A stretch of 48,141 bases of DNA from an uncultured Anaerolineaceae bacterium (GTDB lineage: Bacteria > Chloroflexota > Dehalococcoidia > Tepidiformales > Tepidiformaceae), in NCBI GenBank assembly GCA_964436025.1, contig CAYTBM010000001.1, positions 8,619 to 56,759 of the forward strand, in the 5' to 3' direction. The translations under genes and the position numbers were made by a program. Positions within the stretch are counted from its first letter, which is position 1; each line of letters opens with the position of its first letter. Below, in pieces: positions 376 to 36,798 of this stretch. The notes under the pieces were generated by a model that ran no database searches, was not told the origin of the DNA, and saw nothing but the letters and a program-made list of their open reading frames with translations.

Positions 376-424
376 GGCGCTCGCTCAAAAGAAATGGCTC
401 CCCGACGTGGATTCGAACCACGAA
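339..424. repeat. Direct repeat, copy 2 (period 338 nt)
   Basis: See copy 1. Covers the first 37 nt of the GIY-YIG CDS, the spacer, and the acceptor-3' strand plus T-arm of tRNA-Asn. Confidence 0.9.
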
Positions 425-469
425 CACCGCGGTTAACAGCCGCGTGCTCTACCGTTGAGCTATCGGGGA
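395..469 (-). tRNA. tRNA-Asn (anticodon GTT)
   Basis: Reverse complement: tccccgatagctcaacggtagagcacgcggctgttaaccgcggtgttcgtggttcgaatccacgtcggggagcca. It folds as a perfect cloverleaf: 7-bp acceptor, gctc/gagc D-stem, cgcgg/ccgcg anticodon stem with loop ctGTTaa, cgtgg/ccacg T-stem with loop ttcgaat, and encoded CCA. Confidence 0.95.
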
Positions 470-13477: not shown

Positions 13478-13981
13478 TCAGTAGATCGTGATGTACGTTT
13501 CGCGCGTGGGACCGTCCGGCAAGACCCGCAGCGTTTCGTTCTGCAGGTCCGGTTCGAGCCCCATGCCTTCGAGCGGCAGGAGCCCGAGCAGTGGTTCAGC
13601 GTCTTCCGGGAGGGCGAGGCACTCATAGGTTCCCTCGCGACCCATCACGGCGATCCGGGCATCATCGTGGACAACCACGGGCCGGACGCCTGCGGCTGTC
13701 GACGCGAACGCCTTCTTGAGAACAGGCAGCCCCAGCCGTTCAACGAGCGACTGCGGGAGGCAAAGCGTGTTTGCACCCGTATCCACGAGAATGCGGTCAA
13801 GGTGGATGCGACGAACTTGGTCCTCACGGATAGTCCCGTCCGCCGCGCGAATCTCATCGGCATGGTTGGTGATCGTGATGCTTGCGAAGACCTTGCCCAC
13901 GTGCCTTTGCCGACCTTGAGGCTGTGTCTGGATCGCCGTCATGTCCCAAGTATACGCTCGAACGGTGATCGGTTCGTCCAT
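13478..13981 (-). CDS. Retropepsin-like (clan AA) aspartic protease
   Basis: ILVDTGANTLCLP contains the D-T-G-A catalytic motif in the usual small single-lobe context. The downstream LLGLLPLEGMGL matches the dimerisation-region pattern. Confidence 0.7.
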   Translation of the reverse strand: MDEPITVRAYTWDMTAIQTQPQGRQRHVGKVFASITITNHADEIRAADGTIREDQVRRIHLDRILVDTGANTLCLPQSLVERLGLPVLKKAFASTAAGVRPVVVHDDARIAVMGREGTYECLALPEDAEPLLGLLPLEGMGLEPDLQNETLRVLPDGPTRETYITIY

Positions 13982-14012
13982 GGTGATGCGGAAGCAGACC
14001 TGCTAGCCAGCG

Positions 14013-14773
14013 CTAGAAGACCTCGAACAGGTTGAACCTGGGGCCGTCCTTGCAGCAGAGCTTGACGCCGTGGTGCTTGGTGAAGATGCCGCAGCCGTAG
14101 CACATCCCCCAGCCGCAGGGCATGTTCTCTTCCATCAGGATTTCCGGGAACTGGCGGCGGCCGTTGTTGCGCAGGACGTCCGCGAGGGACTGGAACATCG
14201 GGTTCGGGCCGCAGGAGTAGATGCGGTTCGCCCACTCCTGGTACTTGCCCAGGTGCTGCGTCACGAAGCCTTTCGGGCCGGCTGAACCGTCTTCCGTGAC
14301 TACGACGTACTCGACTTCCTTCGGCCATTCGCTCGCGGCCAGGAGGTGGCGCTCGCTGCGCCCGCCCATCATGGCGACGACCTGGTGGCCGGCGCGGATT
14401 GCGCGTTCGGCGGTATCCACGAGCGGGGCGATGCCTACGCCGCCGCCGATGAGCAGCAAGTTCGCCGGCGTATCCGGGAAGGTGAAGCCGTTGCCGAGGG
14501 GCCCGTAGATGCGGACGGCCGTGCCCGGCGGTTGCTCGCTGAGCCAGCGCGTGCCCTTGCCCACAACCGCGTAGAGCAGCGCGAACCGGTCACCGTCGAT
14601 CCTGTAGTAGCTGAAGGCACGGGCGAACAGCGGGTCCGCACCATCCGGACTGCAGTGCACCATCACGAACTGGCCAGCTTCGACCCCGCGCGTAAGCGAC
14701 GGGCCATGAAACCAGGTGATGAACGCGCCGTCCCAGGCGCGCTCAGTCGAGATGATGCGGGTCTCTTCGATGT

Positions 14774-14777
<4 letters not shown>
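14013..14777 (-). CDS. pyrK: Dihydroorotate dehydrogenase electron-transfer subunit
   Basis: FNR-like FAD/NAD fold with C-terminal 2Fe-2S cysteines CGWGMCYGCG...CC. GTGA start/stop overlap with carB. Confidence 0.85.
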
Positions 14778-18022
<3,245 letters not shown>

Positions 18023-18113
18023 GCGGATCCTCCTCGGGTGTTGGCGGTTTTCGGTACGCAGCGAATGGTCGCCCGCTGTGCCGGCGGGACGATAAAGGCT
18101 GGGCTCGCCATCG

Positions 18114-18560
18114 CTACCTCCTGCCGCGGTTCGGCCGGACGGCGCCGGCCAGTGAACGGCGGACGGGGCGAAGGGCGAAAACCAGCAGGAGTATGGGCGC
18201 AACCAGGAAGAGCGGCGGCTGGGCCTGGAGAAACAGCCATGCCTCGAGCCCGCCGATGAGGACCCCAAGCAACAGCGGCGTGCGGTACCGCTCGAACTGG
18301 TCGCGTTCGTCGCGGAGGAGCAGCAGCCCGAGCAGGAAGGCGAACACGGCCGAAATGGCGAGGGTAGCGGCGAAGGCGCGTGCGAGTGTGGTGCCTACGT
18401 CTCCGGAGGAAAGCGAGTCATCGAAAAAGCTGGCGAGGAAGAAGATGACGGACATGGTGAGCAACGCCATGCCGAGTGCGAAGAGCACATCGGGGACGGT
18501 CGTCGCGGGCCGGCGCGGGCGCAACGGTGCGTTGTTCCTGCGCCGGCGTGGTTCGGTCAT
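18114..18560 (-). CDS. Hypothetical membrane protein (Arg-rich N-terminus, about 4 TM segments)
   Basis: Hydrophobic stretches VLFALGMALLTMSVIFFLASFF, ATLAISAVFAFLLGLLLL, LLLGVLIGGLEAWLF, LFLVAPILLLVFAL. The start is uncertain (ATG 18560 or GTG 18587). Confidence 0.55.
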   Translation of the reverse strand: MTEPRRRRNNAPLRPRRPATTVPDVLFALGMALLTMSVIFFLASFFDDSLSSGDVGTTLARAFAATLAISAVFAFLLGLLLLRDERDQFERYRTPLLLGVLIGGLEAWLFLQAQPPLFLVAPILLLVFALRPVRRSLAGAVRPNRGRR

Positions 18561-18588
18561 CTGGCGGCCCCCAAGTATGCGTTCCACC

Positions 18589-19038
18589 TCAGAGCGGCAG
18601 CTCGAAGGTCATGCTGGGATTGCGCAGCGGCACCATGGCGCCAATGCCGGAGAGAAAGCTGAGCGCGGGCTCGTTGCCTTCCGGGAGGCGGCCGCGGATA
18701 CGCTTGTAGCCGTTTTCGCGGGCGAATTCGAGGATGGTGTCGGCGAGGTCGGTTGCCAGTCCCCGGCGGCGGTGGTCCGGAAGGACCCAGACGCCGAGAA
18801 GGCCGGTGTGGGCTTCGGCAGTGTCAAAGTCGAGTGCGCCGAAGGCGACCGGAATGCTGCCGTCGTAGGCAACGAAGAGGGCGCCGTCTTCTCCGAGGCG
18901 CTTGAGCCAGCGGCGGACGTAATCGCCATCGAACGGACCCTGGAGGCCAACATTCTCCTGGCCCATCCCGCGGAGGATGGCGGCGACGCCTTCGGCGTCG
19001 CTCGGAGTTGCCTTGCGGATATCGGTTGCGCGAGTCAT
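18589..19038 (-). CDS. GNAT family N-acetyltransferase
   Basis: VLPDHRRRGLATDL acetyl-CoA-binding (R/Q-x-x-G-x-A) motif. ATGA-type overlap with the carA stop. Confidence 0.8.
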   Translation of the reverse strand: MTRATDIRKATPSDAEGVAAILRGMGQENVGLQGPFDGDYVRRWLKRLGEDGALFVAYDGSIPVAFGALDFDTAEAHTGLLGVWVLPDHRRRGLATDLADTILEFARENGYKRIRGRLPEGNEPALSFLSGIGAMVPLRNPSMTFELPL

Positions 19039-20132
19039 CGAACCCCTCCACGAACTGTTGCCATCATCTCGACAAACCGGTCGAAGATGTAGGCGTTATC
19101 AAGCGGTCCCGGGCAGGCTTCGGAATGATACTGGATGGTCATCAGCGGTTCGTGCCGAAGCGCGATGCCTTCGACCGTCTGGTCGTTGAGGTTGATGTGG
19201 CTGACGAAGGCAGCGCTGCTTAGCCCGTCCGGATCGACGGCGTAGCCGTGGTTCTGGGCGGTGATGGTCACTTTCCCGGTGGTCACGTCCTGGACCGGGT
19301 GGTTGCCGCCACGGTGGCCGAACGGCAGCTTGAAGGTGCCCGCGCCGAGCGCACGGGCGGCGACCTGGTGGCCGAGGCAGATGCCGAGGATCGGGGCCTT
19401 GCCGATGAGCTTGGATACTTCGCCGACCATGGAGTCGAGGAGCCGCGGGTCACCGGGTCCGGGCGAAAGGACGATGCCGTCCGGACCGAGAGCGAGGAGA
19501 TCGTCGGCCGGCGTGCTGGCGGGAAAGACGCGGACCGAGCAGCCGCGAGCTTCCAGTGAACGCATGATGTTCCGCTTTACGCCGCCGTCGAGGAGGACGA
19601 CCTTGTGGCGGGCCTCGCCGGGCGGGACGTTCCAGTCGAAGACGTGGTCAGTCGTCACCGAGTCGACCCAGTTCACGTCGTCGTAGCCGGCGAAGCCGCG
19701 GAGACGGTCGAGTGCCTGGTCGGCCGACTCGGTGGTGGTGATGGTCCCGGGCATGACGCCAGACATGCGAATGCGGCGGGTGACGGCACGCGTATCGACG
19801 CCCTCAATCGCGACAACGCCGCGCTCGGCGAGGAAATCGCGGAGGGTTTGCTGGGAACGAAGGTGGCTGGCACGGACAGCGGCCTCGCGGACGATGAGGC
19901 CGGTTGGCTGGATGCGGGCCGATTCCTCGACACGGTCATCGATGCCGTAATTGCCAATGAGCGGATAGGTGAGGACTAGCAGTTGTCCAGCGTAGGAGGG
20001 GTCGGTCAGCATCTCCTGATAGCCGGTCATGGAGGTGTTGAAGACGACCTCGCCGTCACTGAAACCAGACGCGCCGATCCTGCGGCCTGGGAAGACGGAC
20101 CCGTCCGCGAGCACAAGCAGGGCATCAGGCAT
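19035..20132 (-). CDS. carA: Carbamoyl-phosphate synthase small (glutaminase) subunit
   Basis: LTDPSYAGQLLVLTYPLIGNYG, GICLGHQ catalytic Cys, HRGGNHPV, QYHSEA. Confidence 0.95.
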   Translation of the reverse strand: MPDALLVLADGSVFPGRRIGASGFSDGEVVFNTSMTGYQEMLTDPSYAGQLLVLTYPLIGNYGIDDRVEESARIQPTGLIVREAAVRASHLRSQQTLRDFLAERGVVAIEGVDTRAVTRRIRMSGVMPGTITTTESADQALDRLRGFAGYDDVNWVDSVTTDHVFDWNVPPGEARHKVVLLDGGVKRNIMRSLEARGCSVRVFPASTPADDLLALGPDGIVLSPGPGDPRLLDSMVGEVSKLIGKAPILGICLGHQVAARALGAGTFKLPFGHRGGNHPVQDVTTGKVTITAQNHGYAVDPDGLSSAAFVSHINLNDQTVEGIALRHEPLMTIQYHSEACPGPLDNAYIFDRFVEMMATVRGGVR

Positions 20133-21438
20133 GGGCGGCCTCCAGTTCGTATGCCAGGGCGCCGTTCATCACCACCGCCCGGACGGCTCCCATGAGCGCT
20201 GCGCCGGCGAGAGGAGTGTTTCGGCCCTTCGAAGCGAAGTTCTTCGGGTCAACCGTCCAACGGTGGGCGGGGTCGACGATCACGAGATCAGCCGCGCCGG
20301 GCGAGAGTGTCCCCGTGAACTCGGGGAAGCCGAAGACGGATGCGGGGCCGCTCGTGAGCGCCCGGACGGTCGCCGCCAGGTCAAGTTCACCGCGATCGAC
20401 GAGCGTCATCAGGGAGCCGAGGGCGGTTTCGATGCAGCTGATGCCGAAGGCGGCGTCGTCGAACTCGCAAAGCTTGTCTTCGATGGCGTGCGGCGCATGG
20501 TCAGTGGCGATTGCGTCGATGATGCCGGCGTTGACTCCTGCGACGAGGGCCCGCCGGTCGGCTTCAGTGCGCAGCGGGGGGTTGATCTTGGCGTTGGTGT
20601 CGTAGGCGGCTTCAGGCGCGCTACCGAAGACCGCGGTTTCGGTCAGGAACAGATGGCTCGGCGTTACCTCGCAGGTGACCGGAAGCCCTCGCCGCTTCGC
20701 GTCGGCGACAAGTTCGAGACCGCGCGCGGTGGTGAGGTGGGCGATGTGGAGACGGGCGCCGGTTGTCTCGCAGAGGGCGAGGTTGCGTGCGATGGCGGTG
20801 GTTTCCGCGGCTTCAGGCTGGCCGGGCAGCCCGAGACGCTCACTGACGCGGCCCTCGTTCATTGAGCCGCCGTGGCTCAGCTCAGGGTCATCGCAGTGCT
20901 CAGAGATTGGGAGCCCGAGTGCGGCCGCGAGCTCCATCGCGTTGCGCATGAGGCGGGCATTCGCGACCGGGTTTCCGTCGTCGCTGAGGGCGATGCAGCC
21001 CCCGGCGGCGAGCTCGGCGAGCTCTGCGAGTTCCTTGCCCGCACGTGCTCGCGTGACGCAGCCGATGGCGAACACCCGAACCCGGGCATCCCGCTCGATG
21101 CGCTCCCGGAGAGCCCGCAGTACGTCTGCCGCGTCGGGCGCGGGGCTGGTGTTGGGCATGGCGCAGATGGTGGTGAAGCCGCCGCGCAGAGCCGCGAGCG
21201 TCTCGCTTGCGATGGTGCCTTTCTGTTCGAAGCCGGGTTCGCGCAGGTGGGTGTGGAGGTCGACGAAGCCGGGAGTCACGAGGTAGCCGCGGGCATCGAT
21301 GACGTTCGCGCCAGGCGCCTCGATGTCCGAACCGATACGTTCGACTGCGCCGTTCGTTACCAGCACGTCAGCATTCGAGTCGAAACCAGAAGCGGGATCG
21401 ATGACGCGGCCAGCGCGAATGAGGAGGGTGTCAGTCAT
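20125..21438 (-). CDS. pyrC: Dihydroorotase
   Basis: VDLHTHLREPG metal-binding HxH, DHAPH, amidohydrolase fold. Overlaps both carA and pyrB. Confidence 0.95.
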   Translation of the reverse strand: MTDTLLIRAGRVIDPASGFDSNADVLVTNGAVERIGSDIEAPGANVIDARGYLVTPGFVDLHTHLREPGFEQKGTIASETLAALRGGFTTICAMPNTSPAPDAADVLRALRERIERDARVRVFAIGCVTRARAGKELAELAELAAGGCIALSDDGNPVANARLMRNAMELAAALGLPISEHCDDPELSHGGSMNEGRVSERLGLPGQPEAAETTAIARNLALCETTGARLHIAHLTTARGLELVADAKRRGLPVTCEVTPSHLFLTETAVFGSAPEAAYDTNAKINPPLRTEADRRALVAGVNAGIIDAIATDHAPHAIEDKLCEFDDAAFGISCIETALGSLMTLVDRGELDLAATVRALTSGPASVFGFPEFTGTLSPGAADLVIVDPAHRWTVDPKNFASKGRNTPLAGAALMGAVRAVVMNGALAYELEAAHA

Positions 21439-22424
21439 GCGTGCCTCGCAGTCGCCATGAGGTACAGGATGGCCATTCGCACGGCGACACCATTCGCGAC
21501 CTGCTCTTCGATGACGGAGGCCATGCCATGGGCGACCTCGGGTGAAATCTCGATGCCTTCGTTCATTGGGCCGGGGTGCATGACCAGCGCGCCCGGTTTC
21601 GCCAGCCCGAGCCGGCGGGCGTTCACCTGGTACCCGGCGATGTACTCGCGGAGGGACGGGATGAGTCCCTTCTCCTGCCGCTCCTTTTGCATGCGGAGCG
21701 CCATCACGATGTCGGCGCCGGCGATTGCTTGGTCAATGTTCGTGGTCACCTCGCAGCGGCCGATTTCAGCAACCTGGGATGCGAGCGTGCGAGGCAGCAG
21801 CGTGGCCGGGCCGCAGAGGGTCACATCCGCGCCGGATGTGAGAAGCGTCCAGAGGTTCGAACGTGCGACCCGGCTGTGCAGGACGTCGCCAACGATGACG
21901 ACTTTTTTGCCCGCCAGCTCTCCCACGTGGCGGCGCATGGTGAAGAGGTCAAGCAACGCCTGGGTGGGATGGGCGTGGGTCCCGTCGCCGCCGTTGATGA
22001 TGCCCGCGGAAGTGTTCCGGGCTGCCAGGTAGGGCGCGCCAGACTTTCCGTGGCGCATGACCACAAGGTCGGCGCCGATGGCCTCGAGCGTTCTCACCGT
22101 GTCGATGAGGGTTTCGCCCTTCTCCACGGAGCTGCCTGACGCGGTGAGGTTCACGACATCGGCACCGAGCGCTTTGGCGGCGACCTCGAAGCTTGCCCGC
22201 GTCCGCGTGGACTGCTCGTAGAACAGGGTGATGACGGTGACGCCGCGGAGGGTGGCAACTTTAGCGACGGGCCGGCTGCGGACTTCACGCATGCCCTCAG
22301 CCGTTTCCATGACCAACTGGATCTCGGCGGGTGTCATTGTGTCGGTGTCGAGGAGGTCTTTGCGGGTCCATGCCGGCGCTTCGCCGGTGAGGATCGGTGC
22401 TTCGGGGTTTCGAAGTTCAAGCAT
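21435..22424 (-). CDS. pyrB: Aspartate carbamoyltransferase catalytic subunit
   Basis: [22 protein letters not shown] motifs. Start at MLELRN (22424), overlapping the pyrR stop by 8 nt. The 88-codon upstream extension is rejected. Confidence 0.95.
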
Positions 22425-22965
22425 GGGCGGCCTCCTCTCCGAACACGTAGACCGCGTCCTCGCCGTCGACTTCGCGGAGGTGGACGCGGACCTTTTGCAC
22501 CAGCGCGGTGGGGATGTTCTTGCCGACGAAGTCCGGGCGTATGGGCAGTTCGCGGTGACCGCGGTCGATGAGGACGGCGAGGCGGACGCGAGCGGGCCGG
22601 CCGAAGTCGAGTAGCGCATCGAGTGCGGCGCGGATGCTTCGGCCGGTGAACAAGACGTCATCCACAAGGACCACGGTTGAGCCATCAATCGAGACCGGGA
22701 TTTCGCTGGGGCGAATGGGCGGCGGCGCGGAACGGCGCGTCACGTCATCGCGGTAGAGCCCGATGTCGAGAGCGCCGACCGGGACAGAGACACCCTCGAA
22801 CTCGCGGATGGCTTCGGCGAGGCGGCGGGCGAGCGGATAACCGCGGGAAAGCAGGCCGACGATGACGAGGCCCTCGGTGCCGCGGTTGTTTTCGACGATT
22901 TCGTGGCCGAGCCGGCGAAGGGTGCGGGCGACTTCGTCAGGGCCGAGATAAGGGGCCGGAGTCAT
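22417..22965 (-). CDS. pyrR: Bifunctional pyr operon regulator / uracil phosphoribosyltransferase
   Basis: [22 protein letters not shown]-binding motif, the typical length of about 180 aa, first gene of the pyr operon. Confidence 0.95.
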
Positions 22966-22966
22966 G

Positions 22967-22998
22967 AAAAACGCCTCCCCCGGACGACGGGACAGGCG
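22967..22998 (-). terminator. Attenuator/terminator hairpin in the pyrR leader that also sequesters the SD
   Basis: Minus-strand RNA CGCCU-GU-CCCG-ucguc-CGGG-GG-AGGCG followed by UUUUU, then C-AUG (pyrR start). The 3' arm contains the GGGGGAGG Shine-Dalgarno. Confidence 0.5.
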
Positions 22999-23030
22999 CG
23001 CACAGCGAATCTCTTGCCGGGCATACCGGC

Positions 23031-23075
23031 ACCTCCTCCCTTGGCAGCCTCACGGGACCACCTTAAAGGGTCTGG
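23031..23075 (-). promoter_or_regulatory. PyrR-binding RNA element (anti-antiterminator loop)
   Basis: Minus-strand RNA CCCUUUAAGGUGGUCCCGUGAGGCUGCCAAGGGAGG resembles the conserved PyrR site (UUUAA...GUCCAGAGAGGCU...AAGG), with a closing stem CCCUU/AAGGG. Confidence 0.55.
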
Positions 23076-29851: not shown

Positions 29852-30418
29852 TCAGTAGCCCCGACTGTCCCAGAGCAAATCGCCCTTGCCGGCGAGCTTC
29901 GCCTGGTAGCGCGAAGCGACGAAGAGCAAGTCGCTCAAGCGGTTCAGGTAGGGAATGACGAATTCGCCGACTTCTTCCTCGCGAGAGAGCGCGATTGTGG
30001 CGCGCTCGGCGCGGCGGCAGACAGTGCGGGCGACGTGGAGTTGCGCAGCCGGAAGGTCGCCGCCGGGGAGGATGAAGCTGCGGAGAGGTTCGAGGGATTC
30101 GTTCCACTCATCCATCCAGGATTCGAGGTCAGTGACGTGGTGCTCTTCGATGCCGGGGACCGCGAAGCGTTTCTTGTCGGACTGAAGGATGCTGAGGTCG
30201 GAACCGAGGTTGAACAGCACTTGCTGGATTACGAAAAAGCGGTCGCGCATGGACTCGTGAAGCCCCGCGCTTACGGTGACGCCGATGGTTGAGTTGAGTT
30301 CATCGACGGTGCCGTAAGCTTCGATGCGGAGGGAGTCTTTGCGGACGCGCTGGCCGCCCCCGAGGGCGGTCGTGCCGTCGTCGCCGGCGCGGGTGTAAAC
30401 GCGGTTGATGTGGACCAT
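29852..30418 (-). CDS. Cob(I)yrinic acid a,c-diamide adenosyltransferase, PduO type
   Basis: IYTRAGDDGTT-type N-terminus (VYTRAGDDGTTALGGG), AYGTVDELNS, LPGG, HVARTVCRRAER. Confidence 0.9.
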   Translation of the reverse strand: MVHINRVYTRAGDDGTTALGGGQRVRKDSLRIEAYGTVDELNSTIGVTVSAGLHESMRDRFFVIQQVLFNLGSDLSILQSDKKRFAVPGIEEHHVTDLESWMDEWNESLEPLRSFILPGGDLPAAQLHVARTVCRRAERATIALSREEEVGEFVIPYLNRLSDLLFVASRYQAKLAGKGDLLWDSRGY

Positions 30419-30525
30419 GGCCACTATGGTGCGCCACCGGCGAGCAGTCGTCAGCCCGTAGAGATGACGTACCGGCGGACGGCGGGCGACAATGCGCTGG
30501 CGGGAGCACCCCGCAGAGGGACATA

Positions 30526-30762
30526 ATGCCGAACGAAGAGCAGCGCTGTATCCGGTGCCACGCGGTGTACTCCGGTGCGCCGTATCTCATGGCGGGGCGG
30601 AAGTTCTGCTGCCAGAGTTGCTCCGTCGGCTCTGCCTGCGAGCACCAGGGTGTGCACCGCCCCACGAGTGTCCGGCGGTACGACTCAATGTTTGACCGGT
30701 TCCGGCAGGTTGCGCGCGAGAACAGCCCGTACGAGGTCCAGAAGGGCCCCTCGCTGCACTGA
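30526..30762 (+). CDS. Small Cys-rich protein, TRASH/YHS-like metal-binding motif
   Basis: 78 aa. C8-x2-C11-x16-C28-C29-x2-C32-x5-C38-x-H40 (CIRCHAVYSGAPYLMAGRKFCCQSCSVGSACEH) resembles the TRASH pattern C-x2-C-x19-22-C-x3-C. GC3 of about 85% supports coding. The SD is weak. Confidence 0.55.
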   Translation: MPNEEQRCIRCHAVYSGAPYLMAGRKFCCQSCSVGSACEHQGVHRPTSVRRYDSMFDRFRQVARENSPYEVQKGPSLH

Positions 30763-30963
30763 TCCAAAAGTTTACGAACCGCGTCGTCATAACATCGCCG
30801 CTGAGCGCTGGGTGCTGGCTATAGTCGCGTGCGAGGGTTCGGCGCCTCTCCCAGGACAGGTGCTCGACCCGCCGGCCGAAGACTGGGTGGAGGAGGCGCG
30901 CCCGCCCGCGTCCACCAACGCCCGGCGCCGACCCTCACCTTTCCCCTCGTCTGGTGCGACGCC

Positions 30964-31392
30964 ATGGCAGTCGGTACGATGCCAGCGGTGCCGCAAGAAC
31001 AGCGTTACGAAGTGAACCGACCGGATGTGGTGGACGAGAGCGTCGATGGCGAAGTGCTGATCGTGCATCTCGGCACCGGCACCTATTACAGTTCACGGGG
31101 CGCGGGCGATGCCGCGTGGCAGCTGCTCGCCAGCGGGCGGACCCCTGGCGAAGCGGCGACTCCGCTCGGTCAGGACGAGGCCGCCCTGCGGGATTTCCTG
31201 GCCGAACTGGTGGAAGAAGGTCTGCTTCGCACTCGCGGCTCAGAACCTGACGGGTTGCCCGAATTCCAGCCGGTGCCAGGGCCGCTCGTGCTGGAAAAGT
31301 ACACGGACATGCAGGAGCTCCTCCTCCTCGATCCGATCCACGACGTGGACGACGAGGAAGGCTGGCCGAATGTCCGCGCTGGTGGCGCCTGA
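30964..31392 (+). CDS. PqqD-family peptide-chaperone-like protein (RRE-type) with acidic C-terminal extension
   Basis: VDESVDGEVLIVHLGTGTYYSSRGAGDAAWQLLASGRTPGEAATPL...LRDFLAELVEEGLL matches the PqqD pattern (beta strands, then N..g..iW.ll.g.t..ei, then a helix ending in G-L-L). The start is uncertain (ATG 30964 or 30979; the frame is open from GTG 30829). Confidence 0.75.
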   Translation: MAVGTMPAVPQEQRYEVNRPDVVDESVDGEVLIVHLGTGTYYSSRGAGDAAWQLLASGRTPGEAATPLGQDEAALRDFLAELVEEGLLRTRGSEPDGLPEFQPVPGPLVLEKYTDMQELLLLDPIHDVDDEEGWPNVRAGGA

Positions 31393-32431
31393 CGTGGAGG
31401 CCTGGCCCGGCGAGCGACGAGCGTTTGACGACCTGGAAGCAGCATTCGTCGCGGCGTCGGCCGGCGGGGTCATCGCGCGGCTGCTCAATGTGGGCGGGCA
31501 CAAGGTCAGGCTCGAGTTCGCGGGTGGCGGGCTGTTCGAGGCGATGTTCCGGCCGTTTGCCCATCTCGAGACGTCGGGCGAACCGGAGATAACAATTAGC
31601 TGCTGGGACAGCGAAACCACCGGAGTCCCACTGCCGGCAACGGTGAACTGTGGTGAAGTGGCGACGCAGAGCCTCCCTGCGTTGCAACGCGACCTCCCGC
31701 GCCGCTGGGCGCTGACTCGCCCGGACCCTGGTTTGAGCGCGTATTCGCGGGACGATTCGAGAGGTATCTACTGGTGGCCGGCCGCCAGCGAATTAACGTA
31801 CGGCGACCTCGCCGGTGGCCTGCGGGCGATTATCAACTGGTCCATGGCCGACCGCGGGCTGCACTTTCTGCACACGGCGGCCGTTGCCCAGGACGGCGTT
31901 GCGGCGCTGATTGTCGGGCAGAGTGGTTCGGGCAAGTCCAGCACCGCGTTAACGTGCCTGCTTGACGGACTGGACTACCTCGGCGACGACCACTGCCTGG
32001 TTGACCCGGCCGGGACGCCGACCGTCCACGCGGTGTATGCCGCGGCGAAGCTGCACACAGGACAATTGCGGCGCTTTCCGGAACTCGAAGCGCATTTGGT
32101 GAACCCTGACCGCGACCCAACGGAGAAGGGCGTGGCGATCCTGTATCCGCATTTCGCGAAGCAGCTGCCGCTGCACCTGCCAGTGGCGGCGTTGCTAGTC
32201 CCGGTGATTGGTGAGGCGTTGGTAAGCCGGATCGAGCCGCTCTCCCGCGGGGCCGCACTGCTGGCGCTGGCGCCCAGCACGCTGCTCCAGATGGCGGCCG
32301 CCGACCGGTCCGGGTTGGGACCCATGGGTGAGCTGGTCCGCAAAGTGCCCTGCTACCGAATCGTCCTGGGTTCCGACCGCTCGTCAATCGCGGCCGAAAT
32401 CGCCAACCTGCTCCGCCGGGCTACGAAGTGA
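31370..32431 (+). CDS. HPr-kinase/phosphorylase-related P-loop protein (HprK-related kinase)
   Basis: LHTAAVAQDGVAALIVGQSGSGKSSTALTCLLDGLDYLGDDHCLV parallels the HPrK/P core HG.lv...G.GvLi.G.SG.GKSe.AL.L...Gh.L.aDD. The start overlaps the PqqD-like gene by 23 nt. GAGGAAGG upstream. Confidence 0.8.
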   Translation: MSALVAPDVEAWPGERRAFDDLEAAFVAASAGGVIARLLNVGGHKVRLEFAGGGLFEAMFRPFAHLETSGEPEITISCWDSETTGVPLPATVNCGEVATQSLPALQRDLPRRWALTRPDPGLSAYSRDDSRGIYWWPAASELTYGDLAGGLRAIINWSMADRGLHFLHTAAVAQDGVAALIVGQSGSGKSSTALTCLLDGLDYLGDDHCLVDPAGTPTVHAVYAAAKLHTGQLRRFPELEAHLVNPDRDPTEKGVAILYPHFAKQLPLHLPVAALLVPVIGEALVSRIEPLSRGAALLALAPSTLLQMAAADRSGLGPMGELVRKVPCYRIVLGSDRSSIAAEIANLLRRATK

Positions 32432-33117
32432 ATCCCCTCGTCTCGGTCATCATCCCGGTCTTCAACGGCGAGCGGTTCCTGGGGGAAGCCATTTCGTGCG
32501 CGATCGCGCAGGACTACCGCCCCATCGAGGTGATAGTTGCCGATGACGGGTCAACCGACGGCTCAGCTGTGCTCGCCCGATCGTTCCCAGGCGTGACCGT
32601 GCTTGAGCTGGAACACACAGGCGTATCAGTGGCACGCAACGCAGCGGTTGCCGTGTCGCGAGGGGAGTGGTTGGCGTTTCTCGATGCTGACGACCTCTGG
32701 TACCCAGAGAAGATTGGCAAACAGGTCGCGCTGGGCTCGACCAGCCCGAACATCGGGATCGTCCTTTGCGAACAGATGCACCGGTTCGACGCCGTGCCTT
32801 CGTGGTGGGTCTGGCCGACCGAACCCAAGAGTAAGACGTGTTTCGAACCCAGTGCATGGCTCGTGCGGAGGACGGTGTTCGACCACGTCGGCGGCTTCGA
32901 GGTCGGGCGTGCGCTGGGTGAGGACCTGAACTGGCTCATGCGCGCCTGGAGCCTGAATGTGCGGCATCGCGTCGTGCGGGAGACGCTGATGAACCGGCGC
33001 ATCCATGAGACCAACGCCTCGGCGCAGTTGCCAACCGCCGAACTGCAACTGATTGGGCTCATCCGCGAGTCGGTTGCCATCAAACGGGCACTACGGGCGG
33101 AGGCGCGAGATGCCTGA
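32428..33117 (+). CDS. Glycosyltransferase family 2 (paralog 1 of 4)
   Basis: VSVIIPVFNGERFL...DDGSTDGS...ARN...FLDADD (DxD)...RRIHETNAS. GTGA overlap with the upstream stop. Confidence 0.9.
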   Translation: MNPLVSVIIPVFNGERFLGEAISCAIAQDYRPIEVIVADDGSTDGSAVLARSFPGVTVLELEHTGVSVARNAAVAVSRGEWLAFLDADDLWYPEKIGKQVALGSTSPNIGIVLCEQMHRFDAVPSWWVWPTEPKSKTCFEPSAWLVRRTVFDHVGGFEVGRALGEDLNWLMRAWSLNVRHRVVRETLMNRRIHETNASAQLPTAELQLIGLIRESVAIKRALRAEARDA

Positions 33118-33790
33118 CCCGCTGGTTTCGGTGGTTATCCCGGTCTACAACGGCGAACGGTTTCTCGAAGCCGCCCTGCGGAGCGTTGGGGCGCAGACAT
33201 ACAGGCACTTGGAGGTGTTCGTTATCGATGACGGGTCCAGCGACGCCAGCCGGACGATTGCGCAAGGGTTCGCTCAGTTCAACGTAATTGGAGGGGCGCA
33301 TCGCGGGGTGTCCGCGGCGCGCAACCTGGGCGTGGAGCAAAGCCGAGGCGAGTTCATCGCGTTTCTGGACGCGGATGACATCTGGTATCCCGAGAAGATT
33401 AGCGCGCAGGTCGCACTTGCGGAGGCGGAACCCCGCTGGGGACTCGTGACCGTCCTCCAGGATTACCTGTTCGAGGGCCCGGTCCCAGAGTGGTTTCGCG
33501 GGCCGGTGGACGGCGGTACTGAGGCCGGATTCATGCCGAGCAGCTGGCTCCTGCGCCGAGCCTGGTGGGACGCAGTTGGGCCGTTCGACACAACGATGAC
33601 CCACGCGGAGGATGTCGATTGGCTGGCGCGCGCGCGGGACCACGGCCTCAAATCCGGCACCGTGGAGCAGATCCTGCTCACGCGCCGCATCCACGATGCG
33701 AATGCGAGCGGAGTTGCTCGAGAATCACGGGCGGGACTGATGACGGCGTTGCGCGGCTCTTTGCAGCGGAAACACGCGGCGCTGCCATGA
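33110..33790 (+). CDS. Glycosyltransferase family 2 (paralog 2 of 4)
   Basis: VSVVIPVYNGERFL...DDGSSDAS...FLDADD...RRIHDANAS. 8-nt overlap with paralog 1. Confidence 0.9.
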   Translation: MPDPLVSVVIPVYNGERFLEAALRSVGAQTYRHLEVFVIDDGSSDASRTIAQGFAQFNVIGGAHRGVSAARNLGVEQSRGEFIAFLDADDIWYPEKISAQVALAEAEPRWGLVTVLQDYLFEGPVPEWFRGPVDGGTEAGFMPSSWLLRRAWWDAVGPFDTTMTHAEDVDWLARARDHGLKSGTVEQILLTRRIHDANASGVARESRAGLMTALRGSLQRKHAALP

Positions 33791-34473
33791 AACATCAGAT
33801 TTCGGTGATCATCCCGGTATTCAACGGTGAGCGGTATCTCGGAGAAGCGCTTGATTCGGCGCTGGCGCAGGAACCTGCCCCGCTCGAAGTTATCGTCGTG
33901 GACGACGGGTCGACCGACGGCTCAGCCGCGATCGCGGAAGCGCGCGATCGGGTGCGTTGCATCCGTGTCGACCATGCGGGCGTTTCCGCCGCCCGCAACC
34001 GCGCCATCGTGGAAGCGCGCGGCGAATGGCTCGCGTTTCTCGACGCAGATGACCGCTGGCTCCCAGGGAAGCTTGCCCACCAACTGGAGGCAGCCCAGGC
34101 GCGGCCTGACGTTGCCATCTTCCTTGGCGTGAAGCGAATCTTGATGGATGGGCCAGCGCAGGAGTGGTACGACGGGCCGGGGGACGGGGAGGAACTTGCT
34201 TCGTACGAGCCGTCGGTCTGGCTCGTGAAGCGTTCAGCATTCGAGCAGGCTGGGCCGTTCGACGTGACTATGGCGATTGGCGAGGATACCGATTGGCTCG
34301 CCCGCGCATCGGACGCGGGGCTTCGGATGCACGTGTGCGAGCAGGTCCTGACCGAACGGCGGATTCACGCCGGCAACGCCTCCGGGGTGCGGTACGACCG
34401 ACGTGGCTTGATGCTGGGCATTCTCAGGGACTCGGTCCGACGCAAACGTCCGGTGACCGGGGAGGCACCATGA
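33787..34473 (+). CDS. Glycosyltransferase family 2 (paralog 3 of 4)
   Basis: ISVIIPVFNGERYL...DDGSTDGS...FLDADD...RRIHAGNAS. ATGA overlap. Confidence 0.9.
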   Translation: MKHQISVIIPVFNGERYLGEALDSALAQEPAPLEVIVVDDGSTDGSAAIAEARDRVRCIRVDHAGVSAARNRAIVEARGEWLAFLDADDRWLPGKLAHQLEAAQARPDVAIFLGVKRILMDGPAQEWYDGPGDGEELASYEPSVWLVKRSAFEQAGPFDVTMAIGEDTDWLARASDAGLRMHVCEQVLTERRIHAGNASGVRYDRRGLMLGILRDSVRRKRPVTGEAP

Positions 34474-35117
34474 GCGACCCCTTGGTGTCGGTGGTGATCC
34501 CCGCGTTCAACGCCTCGGCTTTCGTGGGCGAAGCGATCGGTAGCGTGCTCGCAGAGGAGGGCCCACGCTCCGAAATCATCGTCGTTGACGACGGCTCGAC
34601 AGACGGCACGGCCGACGTCGCCAAAGGATTCCCGGAAGTGCGGCTGATCAGCCGGCCGAACGGCGGGATCGGCGCCGCACGGAATACCGGCCTGCGATTC
34701 GTCCGCGCGCCGCTGGTGGCTTTCCTGGACGCCGACGACATTTGGCCACGGGGGCGGCTCACAGCACTCCTCGACGGCCTGGCGCCGGACGTTGACGCCG
34801 TTTTCGGGCAGGCTGTGCAGTTTGGTGAGGCGCGGGAGGAGACCGTGCCTCAATCGGCGCTGGTAGCCGGCACCATGCTGATCCGGCGGGAGGTCATCGG
34901 CCGGATTGGGGAATTTCGCGAGGAGCTGAAGGTGGGAGAGTTCGTGGACTGGTGGGCGCGTGCGGAGGAGGCGGGAGTGCGATCGAGGCAGATCGACGAG
35001 GTAGTGCTGCGACGCCGCATCCACCGCACGAACACGGGCATTCTCCAGGCAGGCAGCCGCGTGGAATACACGCGTGTATTGAGGGCCGCGTTAGAGCGGC
35101 GGCGGGGCGCCAGCTGA
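34470..35117 (+). CDS. Glycosyltransferase family 2 (paralog 4 of 4, most divergent)
   Basis: VSVVIPAFNASAFV...DDGSTDGT...FLDADD...RRIHRTNTG. ATGA overlap. Confidence 0.9.
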   Translation: MSDPLVSVVIPAFNASAFVGEAIGSVLAEEGPRSEIIVVDDGSTDGTADVAKGFPEVRLISRPNGGIGAARNTGLRFVRAPLVAFLDADDIWPRGRLTALLDGLAPDVDAVFGQAVQFGEAREETVPQSALVAGTMLIRREVIGRIGEFREELKVGEFVDWWARAEEAGVRSRQIDEVVLRRRIHRTNTGILQAGSRVEYTRVLRAALERRRGAS

Positions 35118-35152
35118 CCGCGCCGTCGCTGCGTCCGCCCAATCCAACGCAA

Positions 35153-36235
35153 TTGGCGGCACTCCAGTGCGCGTTGTTGCCGTCCCGGCAGGCCCTCGAA
35201 GCGTGGGCGCGCCTGCGCGAGCGGTCCGACGAGCTGGACAAGACCGACATCGCAACCTTCCGAATGCTTCCGATGGTCTATCGGAACCTGCGGAACGCGG
35301 GGCTGGACGAGGCGGAGATGACGCTGCTCAAAGGCGTCTACCGGCAGTTCTGGCTCAAAGCCCGGATCACGCTGCGGTCGGCAGACCTCGCCATGCGCCG
35401 GCTACGCGCAGCCGGGGTGGAACCGGTCGCATTGAAGGGGCTGGGGCTGCTTGCAACCGCCTACCCGGAGTCAGCTCTGCGTCCGATGCACGACCTCGAC
35501 TTCTTGCTCCGTCCGGGCGAGTTCAAGCGCGGCTTCGAAGCGTTGAGCGCGGCAGGCTGGAAGCCGCTGCGCGGAGGGGCGGATGAGTACTTCCGGCGGC
35601 TCAAGACATTTCACGCGCTCCCGGTGGTGTCGCCCGACGGGCTGGAGATCGACCTCCACCGGTACATGCTCGAAGAGAATTGCTTCCCTGGGGCCGACGA
35701 CCGATTGCTCGGGCGGCTGCGGCAAGGCGTCGTGGACGGGATACAGGTCACCACGCTGTCCGCGGAGGACCTGGTGATCAACGCCTGCGTCCATGGCGTG
35801 CGCTGGGACCCCGTACCGCCGCTGCGGTGGGTGGTGGACGCGGTGATGGCCATCCGCTCTGCCGGGGATGCATTCAACTGGATGTATCTGGAAGGTGAGG
35901 CCATGGAACGTGGGGTGTCGCTGGCCATGGCGGCGGCGTTGAGCTTCGCGCGGGAGTTCGAGCCGGCTATCCCTCCGAGGACGATCGAGGCGCTGGCGGG
36001 CAGGCGCCACGGCCGGCTGGAACGGTGGGACTTCCGATTCCAACAGGGGGGCTACTCGGCGCCTGTCCAGGTTGGCCGGTATGTGACGCGCTACATGCGA
36101 CTCTCGTCCCGCCGCGGTCAAACCCGGCGGCTGCAGGAGTTCCCGCGGTATCTCGCGGCGATGTGGGAACTGGACAGCCCGCGCAGCGTCCCCGCTGAGG
36201 GGGTCAAGCGGCTGTGGACGGCGTTGCGAAGGTGA
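35153..36235 (+). CDS. Nucleotidyltransferase family protein (PF14907 / NTP_transf_5-like)
   Basis: VEPVALKGLGLLATAYPESALRPMHDLDFLLRPGEFKRGFEALSAAGWKP matches the characteristic LKG...R.m.DiDlLv core of this family. The stop is firm. The start is uncertain: there is no in-frame ATG/GTG between the GT2-4 stop and ATG 35264, and candidates are CTG 35114 (CTGA overlap), TTG 35153 and ATG 35264. Confidence 0.75.
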   Translation: MAALQCALLPSRQALEAWARLRERSDELDKTDIATFRMLPMVYRNLRNAGLDEAEMTLLKGVYRQFWLKARITLRSADLAMRRLRAAGVEPVALKGLGLLATAYPESALRPMHDLDFLLRPGEFKRGFEALSAAGWKPLRGGADEYFRRLKTFHALPVVSPDGLEIDLHRYMLEENCFPGADDRLLGRLRQGVVDGIQVTTLSAEDLVINACVHGVRWDPVPPLRWVVDAVMAIRSAGDAFNWMYLEGEAMERGVSLAMAAALSFAREFEPAIPPRTIEALAGRRHGRLERWDFRFQQGGYSAPVQVGRYVTRYMRLSSRRGQTRRLQEFPRYLAAMWELDSPRSVPAEGVKRLWTALRR

Positions 36236-36238
36236 GGC

Positions 36239-36322
36239 TGGTACCGGGGGAGGGATTCGAACCCACACGCCTTGCGGCCGCCGGGTTTAAGCCAGCTGCG
36301 TCTGCCATTCCGCCACCCCGGC
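36239..36322 (-). tRNA. tRNA-Leu (anticodon TAA)
   Basis: Reverse complement: gccggggtggcggaatggcagacgcagctggcttaaacccggcggccgcaaggcgtgtgggttcgaatccctcccccggtacca. Class II tRNA with a long variable arm, anticodon loop cuUAAac, ttcgaat T-loop and encoded CCA. Confidence 0.85.
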
Positions 36323-36366
36323 GAGAGCATTGACTCTACCCGACGCGGAGTTCCCGCGGTACGGCG

Positions 36367-36798
36367 TCAGCGACGGCAATCGCGGCAGAGGCCGTAGAGT
36401 TCAAGGCTGTGGCCTTGCAGCGCGAATCCCTGGGCGCGCGCCTGTTCGGAAATGCGCGCGTCAAGCTCAGGGTCGCTGAACTCGGTCAGCGAACCGCAGT
36501 TGCGGCAGACCAGGTGGTGGTGATGCTCGCTCTCCGAGACCAGGTAGCGGGCCGTCCCATCTTCAAGCGGTACGCGGCACATCATGTCGAGTTCTTGCAG
36601 CAGTTTTATGGTCCGAAAGACCGTCGCTCGCCCGACCGCAGGGACCTCCGCCAGGAGGTCTTCGATCGTGAATGGCCCGTTGGCCGATTCGATCGCCTGG
36701 AGCACGGCGCGGCGCGGGGCCGTGGAGCGGAAGCCAATCGTCTCCAAGCGTGCAGCAGCGGTATCGGCAAACGTCACGGCGCAATCGTAACAAAGCAC
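36367..36798 (-). CDS. Fur family transcriptional regulator
   Basis: STAPRRAVLQAI winged helix, HHHHLVCRNCG...(x)...CRDC: the two CxxC pairs and His cluster typical of Fur/Zur/PerR. GTG start, uncertain. Confidence 0.85.
   Translation of the reverse strand: MLCYDCAVTFADTAAARLETIGFRSTAPRRAVLQAIESANGPFTIEDLLAEVPAVGRATVFRTIKLLQELDMMCRVPLEDGTARYLVSESEHHHHLVCRNCGSLTEFSDPELDARISEQARAQGFALQGHSLELYGLCRDCRR

Follow-up and report, generated by a model that had tools for sequence, protein, structure and literature searches.

The window analysed here is a 48,141-nucleotide stretch of a contig from an uncultured Anaerolineaceae bacterium of the Chloroflexota (GenBank assembly GCA_964436025.1, contig CAYTBM010000001.1, positions 8,619 to 56,759). 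At 30964-36235 on its forward strand it carries a seven-gene operon whose most likely function is the phosphorylation and glycosylation of a peptide. The operon encodes a small protein identified by profile and structure match as a lasso B1-type recognition element (RRE) of the kind found in pathways for ribosomally made peptides with post-translational modifications (RiPPs), an HprK-like P-loop kinase, four short family 2 glycosyltransferases (GT2s) and a PF14907 nucleotidyltransferase-fold protein (NTase). The best candidate for the acceptor is the conserved C-terminal tail of the RRE protein itself. The same gene set recurs in at least 58 species-level genomes, an arrangement far beyond chance. 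The enzyme logic is already known; what is new is one original feature, the fusion of an RRE to a leader-like peptide, together with a very broad distribution.

The operon and its recognition element

Inspection of the open reading frame (ORF) list and of the junctions between the seven co-directional genes reproduced the coordinates and overlaps of the first-pass annotation of this DNA. The junctions are, in order, a 23-nt overlap, GTGA, 8 nt, ATGA, ATGA and CTGA, the last being the one previously called non-canonical. The seven genes, all intact and overlapping and with their catalytic motifs retained, are confirmed to form one translationally coupled operon, and the whole cassette amounts to 7 genes in 5.3 kb without membrane parts:

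30964-31392, +, 142-aa RRE protein (PqqD-like); PF05402 21.7 bits, family profile and AlphaFold2 (AF2) model
31264-31368, +, tail motif encoded within the RRE gene (residues 101-135), FQPVPGPLVLEKYTDMQELLLLDPIHDVDDEEGWP; logo and alignment
31370-32431, +, 353-aa HprK-like P-loop kinase with a PEPCK (phosphoenolpyruvate carboxykinase)/HprK fold; PF07475 18.5 bits, profile and AF2
32428-33117, +, GT2 glycosyltransferase 1, 229 aa, class A paralogue; PF00535 103 bits
33110-33790, +, GT2 glycosyltransferase 2, 226 aa, class A paralogue; PF00535 107 bits
33787-34473, +, GT2 glycosyltransferase 3, 228 aa, class A paralogue; PF00535 116 bits
34470-35117, +, GT2 glycosyltransferase 4, 215 aa, class B, the conserved type that adjoins the NTase; PF00535 113 bits
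35114-36235, +, nucleotidyltransferase-fold NTase of PF14907 (NTP_transf_5), about 373 aa, with CTG as its probable start; PF14907 127 bits

The earlier domain assignments held for all seven products: those of the GT2s and of PF14907 are strong, and the PqqD-like and HprK-like ones, although sub-threshold in Pfam, were rescued by family profiles and AF2 models. Thus the RRE protein scores under the PF05402 gathering score of 23.4 and the window protein matched no NCBIfam model; however, a profile built from 45 family sequences and compared with the sequences in the PDB recovers TbiB1 (4e-17), PbaB1 (4e-12), TfuB1 (3e-7) and LppB (9e-7), with true PqqD reaching an E-value of only 0.2-0.45. The AF2 model (predicted local distance difference test, pLDDT, of 84) has as its top Foldseek matches the TbiB1-leader complexes 5v1v and 5v1u, at 30-34% identity, as well as TfuB1-leader complexes. 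Profile, structural match and the cis (F/Y)xxPxL motif described below agree in marking the “PqqD-like” protein as a lasso B1-type RRE, and peptide binding by it is predicted.

Across phyla this protein is about 145 aa long; its RRE domain (approximately residues 14-90 in the window) is joined by a linker of variable sequence to a tail that is conserved and forms the C-terminus. The consensus of 165 unique tails reads (F/Y)xxPxL-EKY(T/S)DMxELLLLDPIH(D/E)VDxxGWP, followed by 3-15 variable residues; in the corresponding logo F/Y stands at 70%, P at 82%, L at 86%, D-P-(I/V)-H at 100% and GWP at about 80%, and the invariant tail positions are D115, M116, L119, D123, P124, H126, V128, G133, W134 and P135. 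At its start the tail matches [Y/W]xxPx[L/V/I], the motif by which the leaders of lasso peptides and of linear polyphosphorylated peptides (LPP) bind discrete RREs (PMC6784204, PMC13381572). In the AF2 model residues 101-120 have pLDDT values of 80-92, and a strand formed by residues 111-113, the three directly following xPxL, is in the same register as the leaders of PbaA and LppA that, in crystal structures, add to the RRE sheet; residues 121-142, with the DPIHDV..GWP part, are modelled at a pLDDT of about 55.

The first-pass annotation had found no obvious precursor, a view overtaken both by this leader-like tail and by what occurs where the tail is missing. The complete loci L008 and L027 have tail-less RREs, and directly downstream of each lies a 37-aa ORF. 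The L008 peptide (...PYEKPILKKFERLYEPGFGT) carries YxxPx(L/I), and the L027 peptide (...YTKPTIDKHDPINSAAIGTPPS) carries the same motif plus DPIN. We also scanned all loci for separate precursors as 20-100-aa ORFs with [YFW]xxPx[LVIMF]. This matched 68 of 1952 ORFs, about chance level; the only real-looking matches were those of L008 and L027, the frameshifted tail of L038 and the contig-edge tail of L052, and in loci with a tailed RRE the scan found no separate YxxPxL ORF beyond chance. The tail and the separate peptide are therefore complementary in distribution, which supports the peptide as the object of modification. Two tail variants suggest that there are several sub-families with different “cores”: in L062 (15594-15989) a second RRE has LYKKPTMKRYEQLHEIGVGS fused to it, a homologue of the free L008 peptide ending in GVGS, and in L052 (35-214, a metagenome-assembled genome, MAG, of Mycobacterium sp.) the tail YAVPSLVPHSQL.../YAVPSLVPHSQLIDLVKMYDAPLCW comes near the LPP leader motif YxxPxVLxHQxI.

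Conservation, fusions and enzyme families

To survey the cassette we used one genome per GTDB species and family hidden Markov models (HMMs) built from the window proteins, counting domain-trimmed matches at E<=1e-5 within 8 kb around the kinase. This gave at least 58 loci, and the counts below refer to the 58 listed; an earlier iterative HMM search on raw ORFs, which had drifted to 231 “PqqD” matches in 67 loci, was discarded. The carriers, each a separate GTDB species, span about 13 phyla; the label “orphan” given to the RRE gene in the first pass no longer applies. They include Chloroflexota, Cyanobacteria, Verrucomicrobiota, Acidobacteriota, Actinomycetota, Planctomycetota, Chlamydiota and Bacteroidota, as well as alpha-, beta-, gamma- and delta-proteobacteria, Gemmatimonadota, Patescibacteria, Margulisiibacteriota and Myxococcota, and among them are the cultured Verrucomicrobium spinosum DSM 4136, where the cassette lies around 6.158-6.163 Mb of ABIZ01000001, as well as Anabaena sp. 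UHCC 0187 and Synechococcus sp. ATX 2A4, likewise cultured. A full-length profile of the RRE protein gathers 1451 clusters (50% identity) at E<=1e-30.

Within 8 kb of the kinase a GT2 is found in 56/58 loci, a PqqD-like gene in 53/58 and an NTase in 46/58. Where the flanks are long enough (34 loci) the figures are 34/34 for GT2s, 32/34 for the PqqD-like gene, 31/34 for the NTase and 30/34 for all three. The PqqD-like gene usually comes first, then the kinase, then between one and five short GT2s of about 230 aa each, and last the NTase. Because these 30 well-flanked loci have all four gene types, the GT2s are an integral part of it; the neighbourhood check that the first pass had called for finds the cassette conserved, with GT2s absent from none of the 34 well-flanked loci. 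Its suggestion that the GT2s expand a trio described by TIGR04352 and TIGR04353 finds no support on this count or in the kinase score (39 bits, cutoff 200). Among the neighbours, clustering reveals MsbA-like ABC exporters in 21 loci, family 4 glycosyltransferases (GT4s) in 15, sulfotransferases in several and radical SAM genes in few; no peptidase family appears among the conserved neighbours of the listed loci. Several related loci sit amid GT4s, epimerases and other sugar genes. In L007 (824-3982, -) Asn_synthase and CapK_C genes lie 6-9 kb upstream on the opposite strand, amid sugar-modifying genes, and are not conserved neighbours.

Fusions connect the components in several lineages. Pfam-confirmed cases are GT2::RRE (L027), GT2::kinase (P0098), kinase::GT2 (L052) and, in Planctomycetes, RRE-tail::kinase proteins of about 615-850 aa (L048, L053, P0244, P0247). 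In L048 and L053 a fully tailed RRE precedes one more RRE segment, which is degenerate, and the kinase; in P0244 and P0247 (780-850 aa) it precedes two further RRE modules and then the HprK-like kinase. P0118 was rejected as a fusion of this kind, only a degenerate RRE remnant being present. P0241 and P0242 consist of two and three RRE modules, each followed, as are those of P0244 and P0247, by FxxPx(L/V/I), with DPIH..GWP only on the last module of P0241 and P0242. Tandem-RRE architectures such as these, with or without an HprK-like domain, are not described in the RRE literature cited here. The fusions argue that RRE, kinase and GT2 work as one complex on one substrate, and the multi-RRE proteins show that xPxL can complement the RRE in a purely structural way.

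Against PF07475 (Hpr_kinase_C) the kinase scores 18.5 bits with a gathering score of 33.3, and in NCBIfam it reaches 39 bits for TIGR04352 (cutoff 200) and 28 bits for TIGR04355, both far under cutoff; TIGR00679, the model of HPr kinase/phosphorylase proper, gives 20 bits with a cutoff of 240. It also has a weak NCBIfam match to FomB, an HprK-like small-molecule kinase. The family profile retrieves the HprK/P catalytic domains 1jb1, 2qmh and 1ko7 from the PDB (E ~2e-6), with which the kinase shares only the P-loop core H..GxSGxGKS..DD. H168, G183, G186, G188-K189-S190 and K253 are invariant in an alignment of 60 kinase sequences, at least 90% of which also share S187, D206, D207 and K227. The AF2 model (pLDDT 93.4) has the two-domain PEPCK/HprK fold, with ATP-PEPCK as its top Foldseek match (E 1e-11). 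Four distant kinase homologues likewise score under cutoff against TIGR04352 (17-49 bits), six PqqD-like proteins gave no match to TIGR04353, and the best PqqD-type matches of the PqqD-like proteins from distant loci are models of lasso B1 chaperones. By these comparisons the cassette proteins form a family of their own, apart from the curated NCBIfam models.

The GT2s retain the DxD motif, which in glycosyltransferase 1 takes the form of a DAD motif (FLDADD) accompanied by a C-terminal RRIHxxN motif. Glycosyltransferases 1, 2 and 3 are 45-48% identical to each other and their nearest relatives are confined to the same Chloroflexota lineage; outside that lineage the best matches of glycosyltransferase 4 are the last GT2 of cassettes L007, L010, L014, L017, L029 and L039. 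Only the extra copies are lineage-specific paralogues (class A); glycosyltransferase 4 represents the conserved class that adjoins the NTase in distant phyla (class B). Neither glycocin nor mycofactocin enzymes are near relatives: the scores are 18-23 bits for TIGR04195 (cutoff 350) and 51-83 bits for MftF, TIGR03965 (cutoff 280), and SunS in the PDB is matched at E 5e-4 over the N-terminal Rossmann part only.

The NTase conserves the pol-beta-type acidic motif LKG...HDLD...EIDLH in an alignment of 15 homologues, and a comparison with PDB sequences gave no match. Its start is most likely the CTG at 35114 within the CTGA overlap, because the NTase genes of L004 and L005 start with ATG and GTG within an equivalent 4-nt overlap and because the conserved residues RPPxPTQ are encoded upstream of the first TTG; TTG 35153 was rejected as the start on account of those N-terminal residues. 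Either the CTG is a rare start served by termination-reinitiation coupling, or this organism has a point difference there at the cost of weaker NTase expression. At 11739-13886 in L005 (Ca. Amarobacter glycogenicus) one GT2 is split into pieces of 57 aa and 173 aa, and the NTase is truncated with a divergent C-terminus; together these may reflect cassette decay or assembly errors.

Proposed mechanism and rival explanations

To a specific form of the phospho-glycosylation reading we give roughly even credence: a soluble, RRE-scaffolded complex of the paeninodin/LPP type that acts on a cis-fused leader/core, the cyclase and dedicated leader peptidase having been lost or never present. The (F/Y)xxPxL start of the tail would dock on the RRE in cis, adding a beta-strand to it, and thereby present DMxELLLLDPIHDVDxxGWP and its short variable end to the enzymes. 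The HprK-like kinase would phosphorylate the presented segment, and the PF14907 protein and the GT2s (three of class A and one of class B) would build a glycan of hexose/N-acetylhexosamine (HexNAc) type on or near the phosphate. The product might be a phospho-glycosylated small protein, or a peptide freed from the RRE protein by a host protease. Such phosphate-then-glycan steps would parallel those of PsmK/PsmN on pseudomycoidin and of LppK on LPP; the experimental precedent, from enzymes of homologous type, is that LppK and PsmK polyphosphorylate a Ser of an RRE-bound peptide and that PsmN is needed for adding +162 Da hexose(s) to the phosphate. Besides the complementarity of tail and 37-aa peptide, the conserved gene set, the lasso B1-type RRE with its leader-like tail, the fusions, the retained catalytic motifs, and the MsbA-like exporters and sulfotransferases near related loci, as in paeninodin and LPP clusters, support this reading, and the chaperone-guided phospho-glycosylation of a peptide or protein proposed in the first pass is consistent with the evidence.

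A bolder version, which we hold tentatively and rather doubt, takes the 142-aa protein for a self-contained precursor (RRE, leader and core) whose DPIHDVDxxGWP core is phosphorylated and glycosylated in cis to yield a conserved, widespread product derived from the peptide. If true, the product would be of a cofactor or signal type, like PQQ or mycofactocin, and not a variable antibiotic; the protein would found the first class of RRE-fused precursors, and a defined phospho-oligosaccharide would be what the GT2 array makes.

Several observations weigh against the leading account of a modified tail, and the acceptor is that account's main weakness. No Ser, Thr or Tyr of the tail is invariant. 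The best phospho-acceptor candidate, T114, is T/S in 85% of tails and is replaced by D/E in 5 of 20 diverse loci that retain kinase, GT2 and NTase, substitutions in complete cassettes that weaken it as a universal acceptor. In the window protein the motif itself sits slightly out of register (PGPLVL, with F101 four residues upstream), and the indicators of cis docking are pLDDT and DSSP. In the Planctomycete fusions the tail is internal and not a free C-terminus, and the multi-RRE proteins repeat FxxPxL without DPIH..GWP, which fits a scaffold equally with a substrate. The kinase family is distinct from the characterised peptide kinases, its nearest structure being PEPCK, a small-molecule enzyme; and the window has neither a peptidase at the operon nor an exporter.

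Several of these features are turned to advantage by an account of the tail as a scaffold or “constitutive leader”, which we regard as unlikely though serious. Here the cis pseudo-leader would stabilise the RRE, DPIHDV..GWP would recruit or activate the enzymes, and a leaderless acceptor (another cellular protein, or a peptide encoded elsewhere) would be modified in trans. A tail without an invariant hydroxyl residue, RRE modules of P0241 and P0242 that each have FxxPx(L/V/I) with only one carrying DPIH..GWP, and the internal tail of the RRE::kinase fusions all agree with it, as does the low pLDDT of DPIH..GWP in the monomer, which is expected of a partner-binding linear motif. However, the tail-homologous 37-aa peptides occur, precursor-like, exactly where the RRE has no tail, the hypervariable residues past GWP look like a RiPP core, and neighbour clustering of the 58 listed loci yielded no conserved gene as a candidate trans-substrate. 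The scaffold account stays a serious rival because no Ser/Thr/Tyr of the tail is invariant and T114 is D/E in five complete cassettes.

An altogether different function, sugar activation, strikes us as improbable. The kinase would make a sugar phosphate, the PF14907 protein an NDP-sugar (nucleoside diphosphate sugar) and the GT2s would polymerise it or transfer it to a non-peptide acceptor (a soluble oligosaccharide, a small molecule or a cell-envelope glycan), with the RRE protein as a regulator. A kinase, a nucleotidyltransferase and a glycosyltransferase together follow the canonical logic of sugar salvage and activation, and the PEPCK and FomB matches of the kinase point the same way, as do the related loci amid sugar genes; moreover, the biochemistry of LppN and PsmN is unsettled, and PsmN might merely supply substrate. 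Yet the window has no priming phosphoglycosyltransferase, flippase or polymerase, and no membrane protein is found among the operon products. The characterised HprK-like enzymes of RRE clusters are peptide kinases, and a lasso-type RRE is present in 32/34 well-flanked loci and covalently fused to kinase or GT2 in several lineages. Sugar activation is the weaker rival because it leaves this near-universal, sometimes fused RRE unexplained. Least credible of all, and in our judgement very improbable, is that the operon belongs to the TIGR04352 trio or is a decaying lasso/LPP remnant without a function of its own. TIGR04352 is indeed the best NCBIfam match of the kinase, and the split GT2 and truncated NTase of L005 could be read as decay; but the 39-49 bits of the window kinase and its four distant homologues (range down to 17) against a cutoff of 200, with no TIGR04353 match, refute membership of that family, and seven intact, overlapping window genes with catalytic motifs, in a system of about 13 phyla and more than 1400 protein clusters, are incompatible with decay.

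If the operon is indeed a phospho-glycosylation system, its interest lies in its economy. Tailoring by an HprK-like kinase and a PF14907 protein has so far been tied to lasso peptides of Bacillota and to LPP; here the same enzyme logic is compact, soluble and free of cyclase and peptidase, and it extends over about 13 phyla and more than 1,400 clusters at 50% identity. A system this minimal could reveal the role of the NTase-fold protein, show how one substrate passes from an RRE to a kinase and to several glycosyltransferases, and test the RRE-leader fusion as a natural route to constitutively engaged RiPP enzymes. Since cultured carriers exist, the question is directly testable.

Genomic setting and relation to known systems

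The rest of the 48-kb window consists of housekeeping genes: a CoA-transferase, an acyl-CoA dehydrogenase, short-chain dehydrogenases/reductases (SDRs), a GGDEF-EAL protein, TetR, DnaJ, PNPOx, dCTP deaminase, ABC1, Cob(I)alamin adenosyltransferase, Fur, CheW, a metallo-beta-lactamase (MBL)-fold protein, MoxR-DUF58-DUF4129, the start of an ATP synthase operon, and a pyrimidine operon (carA/carB, pyrB, pyrC-like, pyrR-like, pyrF). Two genes break up the pyrimidine operon (14013-23049, -; pyrR-like, pyrB, dihydroorotase-like, carA, carB, pyrK-like): one for a GNAT acetyltransferase (18589-19095), the other a 164-aa ORF without Pfam match (18114-18608). A retropepsin-like aspartyl protease ORF at 13478-14002 (-; PF13975/PF13650, E ~3e-7) lies 17 kb from the cassette with no sign of a link. 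The 3' boundary of the operon is a tRNA-Leu(taa) at 36239-36322 (-), which begins 4 nt past the NTase stop; a second tRNA, tRNA-Asn(gtt), is found at 395-469 (-). A promoter and terminator scan of 30300-36500 produced nothing above shuffled expectation, and an Rfam search gave a tRNA as its sole match and no riboswitch. Matching flanks surround the syntenic loci of a Dehalococcoidia MAG (kinase 66% identical) and of Ca. Amarobacter glycogenicus (56%), and GT2 copy number across the syntenic Chloroflexota loci ranges from 3 to 5.

Upstream of the operon, at 30526-30762 (+), lies a 78-aa Cys-rich ORF (CxxC...CCxxC...C) with a GAGGG ribosome-binding site and a gene call in the public contig, which the first pass had put forward as a candidate peptide. 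Its homologues are found only in close Chloroflexota relatives (L002, L003, L005), a GNAT gene intervenes in L005, and it has no YxxPxL and no Pfam or NCBIfam match; it was rejected as precursor and looks like a small metal-binding protein that is not a member of the cassette.

Across the whole window we found no Asn-synthetase-like cyclase, transglutaminase-like (B2) protease, radical SAM, YcaO, LanM, signal peptidase or ABC exporter, which bears out the corresponding absences reported earlier. The cyclase search returned no PF00733/GATase-type match among the ORFs of the window or in the syntenic L002, L004 and L005, and the DUF58/DUF4129 genes downstream belong to a MoxR operon, no B2 protease domain being found in the window. 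Thus, although the likeness to the HprK/NTase tailoring of paeninodin-type lasso clusters holds, with a B1-type RRE, an HprK-like kinase (PadeK/PsmK) and an NTP-transferase-fold protein (PsmN) co-occurring in both, the window has neither cyclase, nor B2 protease, nor a separate precursor with a C-terminal Ser, and its product cannot be a lasso peptide. In pseudomycoidin PsmK polyphosphorylates the C-terminal Ser (PMC6993621), and the phosphate acquires one or two +162 Da hexoses in a step that needs PsmN, a protein with an NTP-transferase fold, by a mechanism that is unsettled (PMC6993621, PMC11912497). Genes for an HPr kinase, an NTase and a GT2 are frequent additions to the lasso clusters of Firmicutes, where sulfotransferase genes co-occur too (PMC7533575).

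The closest analogue is LPP, and a full-text literature search for HprK, RRE and glycosyltransferase together gave the LPP paper as its sole match. The LPP cluster encodes a SpI-like peptidase, a discrete RRE, the HprK-like LppK, the NTP transferase LppN and an MsbA-like pump (Popov et al., Nat Commun, May 2026, PMC13381572). Its precursor carries YxxPxVLxHQxIxFETxxS, of which LppK polyphosphorylates core Ser3 in a strictly Ser-specific manner; no activity was observed for LppN, and according to the authors LPP and paeninodins are confined to Bacillota (PMC13381572). Common to LPP and the present cassette are a discrete lasso-derived RRE, a kinase of HprK-like type, an NTP transferase (LppN being likened by description), the want of a macrolactam cyclase, a YxxPx(V/L)-type leader motif and glycosyltransferase-rich surroundings; about a third of the related loci, though not the window, also have an MsbA-like exporter. 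In contrast to LPP, no SpI-like leader peptidase (LppS) occurs in the window or among the conserved neighbours of the 58 listed loci, and the leader-like peptide is fused to the RRE, whereas the LPP precursor is a separate peptide of 35-200 aa. The fused tail has only (F/Y)xxPxL in common with that precursor, reading EKYTDMxELLLLDPIHDVDxxGWP in place of VLxHQxIxFETxxS and having no invariant Ser. Short GT2s are core genes here, the range is about 13 phyla as against Bacillota only, and the RRE profile of the cassette is nearer TbiB1 (4e-17) than LppB (9e-7). The earlier statement that the locus fits no characterised RiPP class is overtaken by so close an analogue (PMC13381572), although the locus falls outside LPP.

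Other systems are more distant. TIGR04352, TIGR04355 and the SynChlorMet proteins ScmC/ScmD (TIGR04249/04248) share the pairing of an HprK-like P-loop protein with a PqqD fold and give weak reciprocal matches; they differ in that the scores are 17-49 bits against cutoffs of 100-200, and in that this cassette has its own tail-bearing RRE and integral GT2s. For a glycocin, no SunS-family GT2 at cutoff and no Cys-containing precursor was found, and for mycofactocin the window has neither the radical SAM enzyme MftC nor MftA. An exopolysaccharide or lipid-linked glycan finds no priming phosphoglycosyltransferase, flippase/polymerase or ABC exporter in the window, and no transmembrane (TM) segment is predicted in any of the seven proteins (maximum KD19 = 1.8), which makes the lipid-linked acceptor considered in the first pass unlikely. 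In borosins the core peptide is fused to its own modifying protein, a catalytic methyltransferase. The cassette resembles them in that a peptide, here the tail as putative substrate, is covalently tied to a component of its maturation, and differs in what the peptide is fused to, namely the recognition element and, in Planctomycetota, the kinase too.

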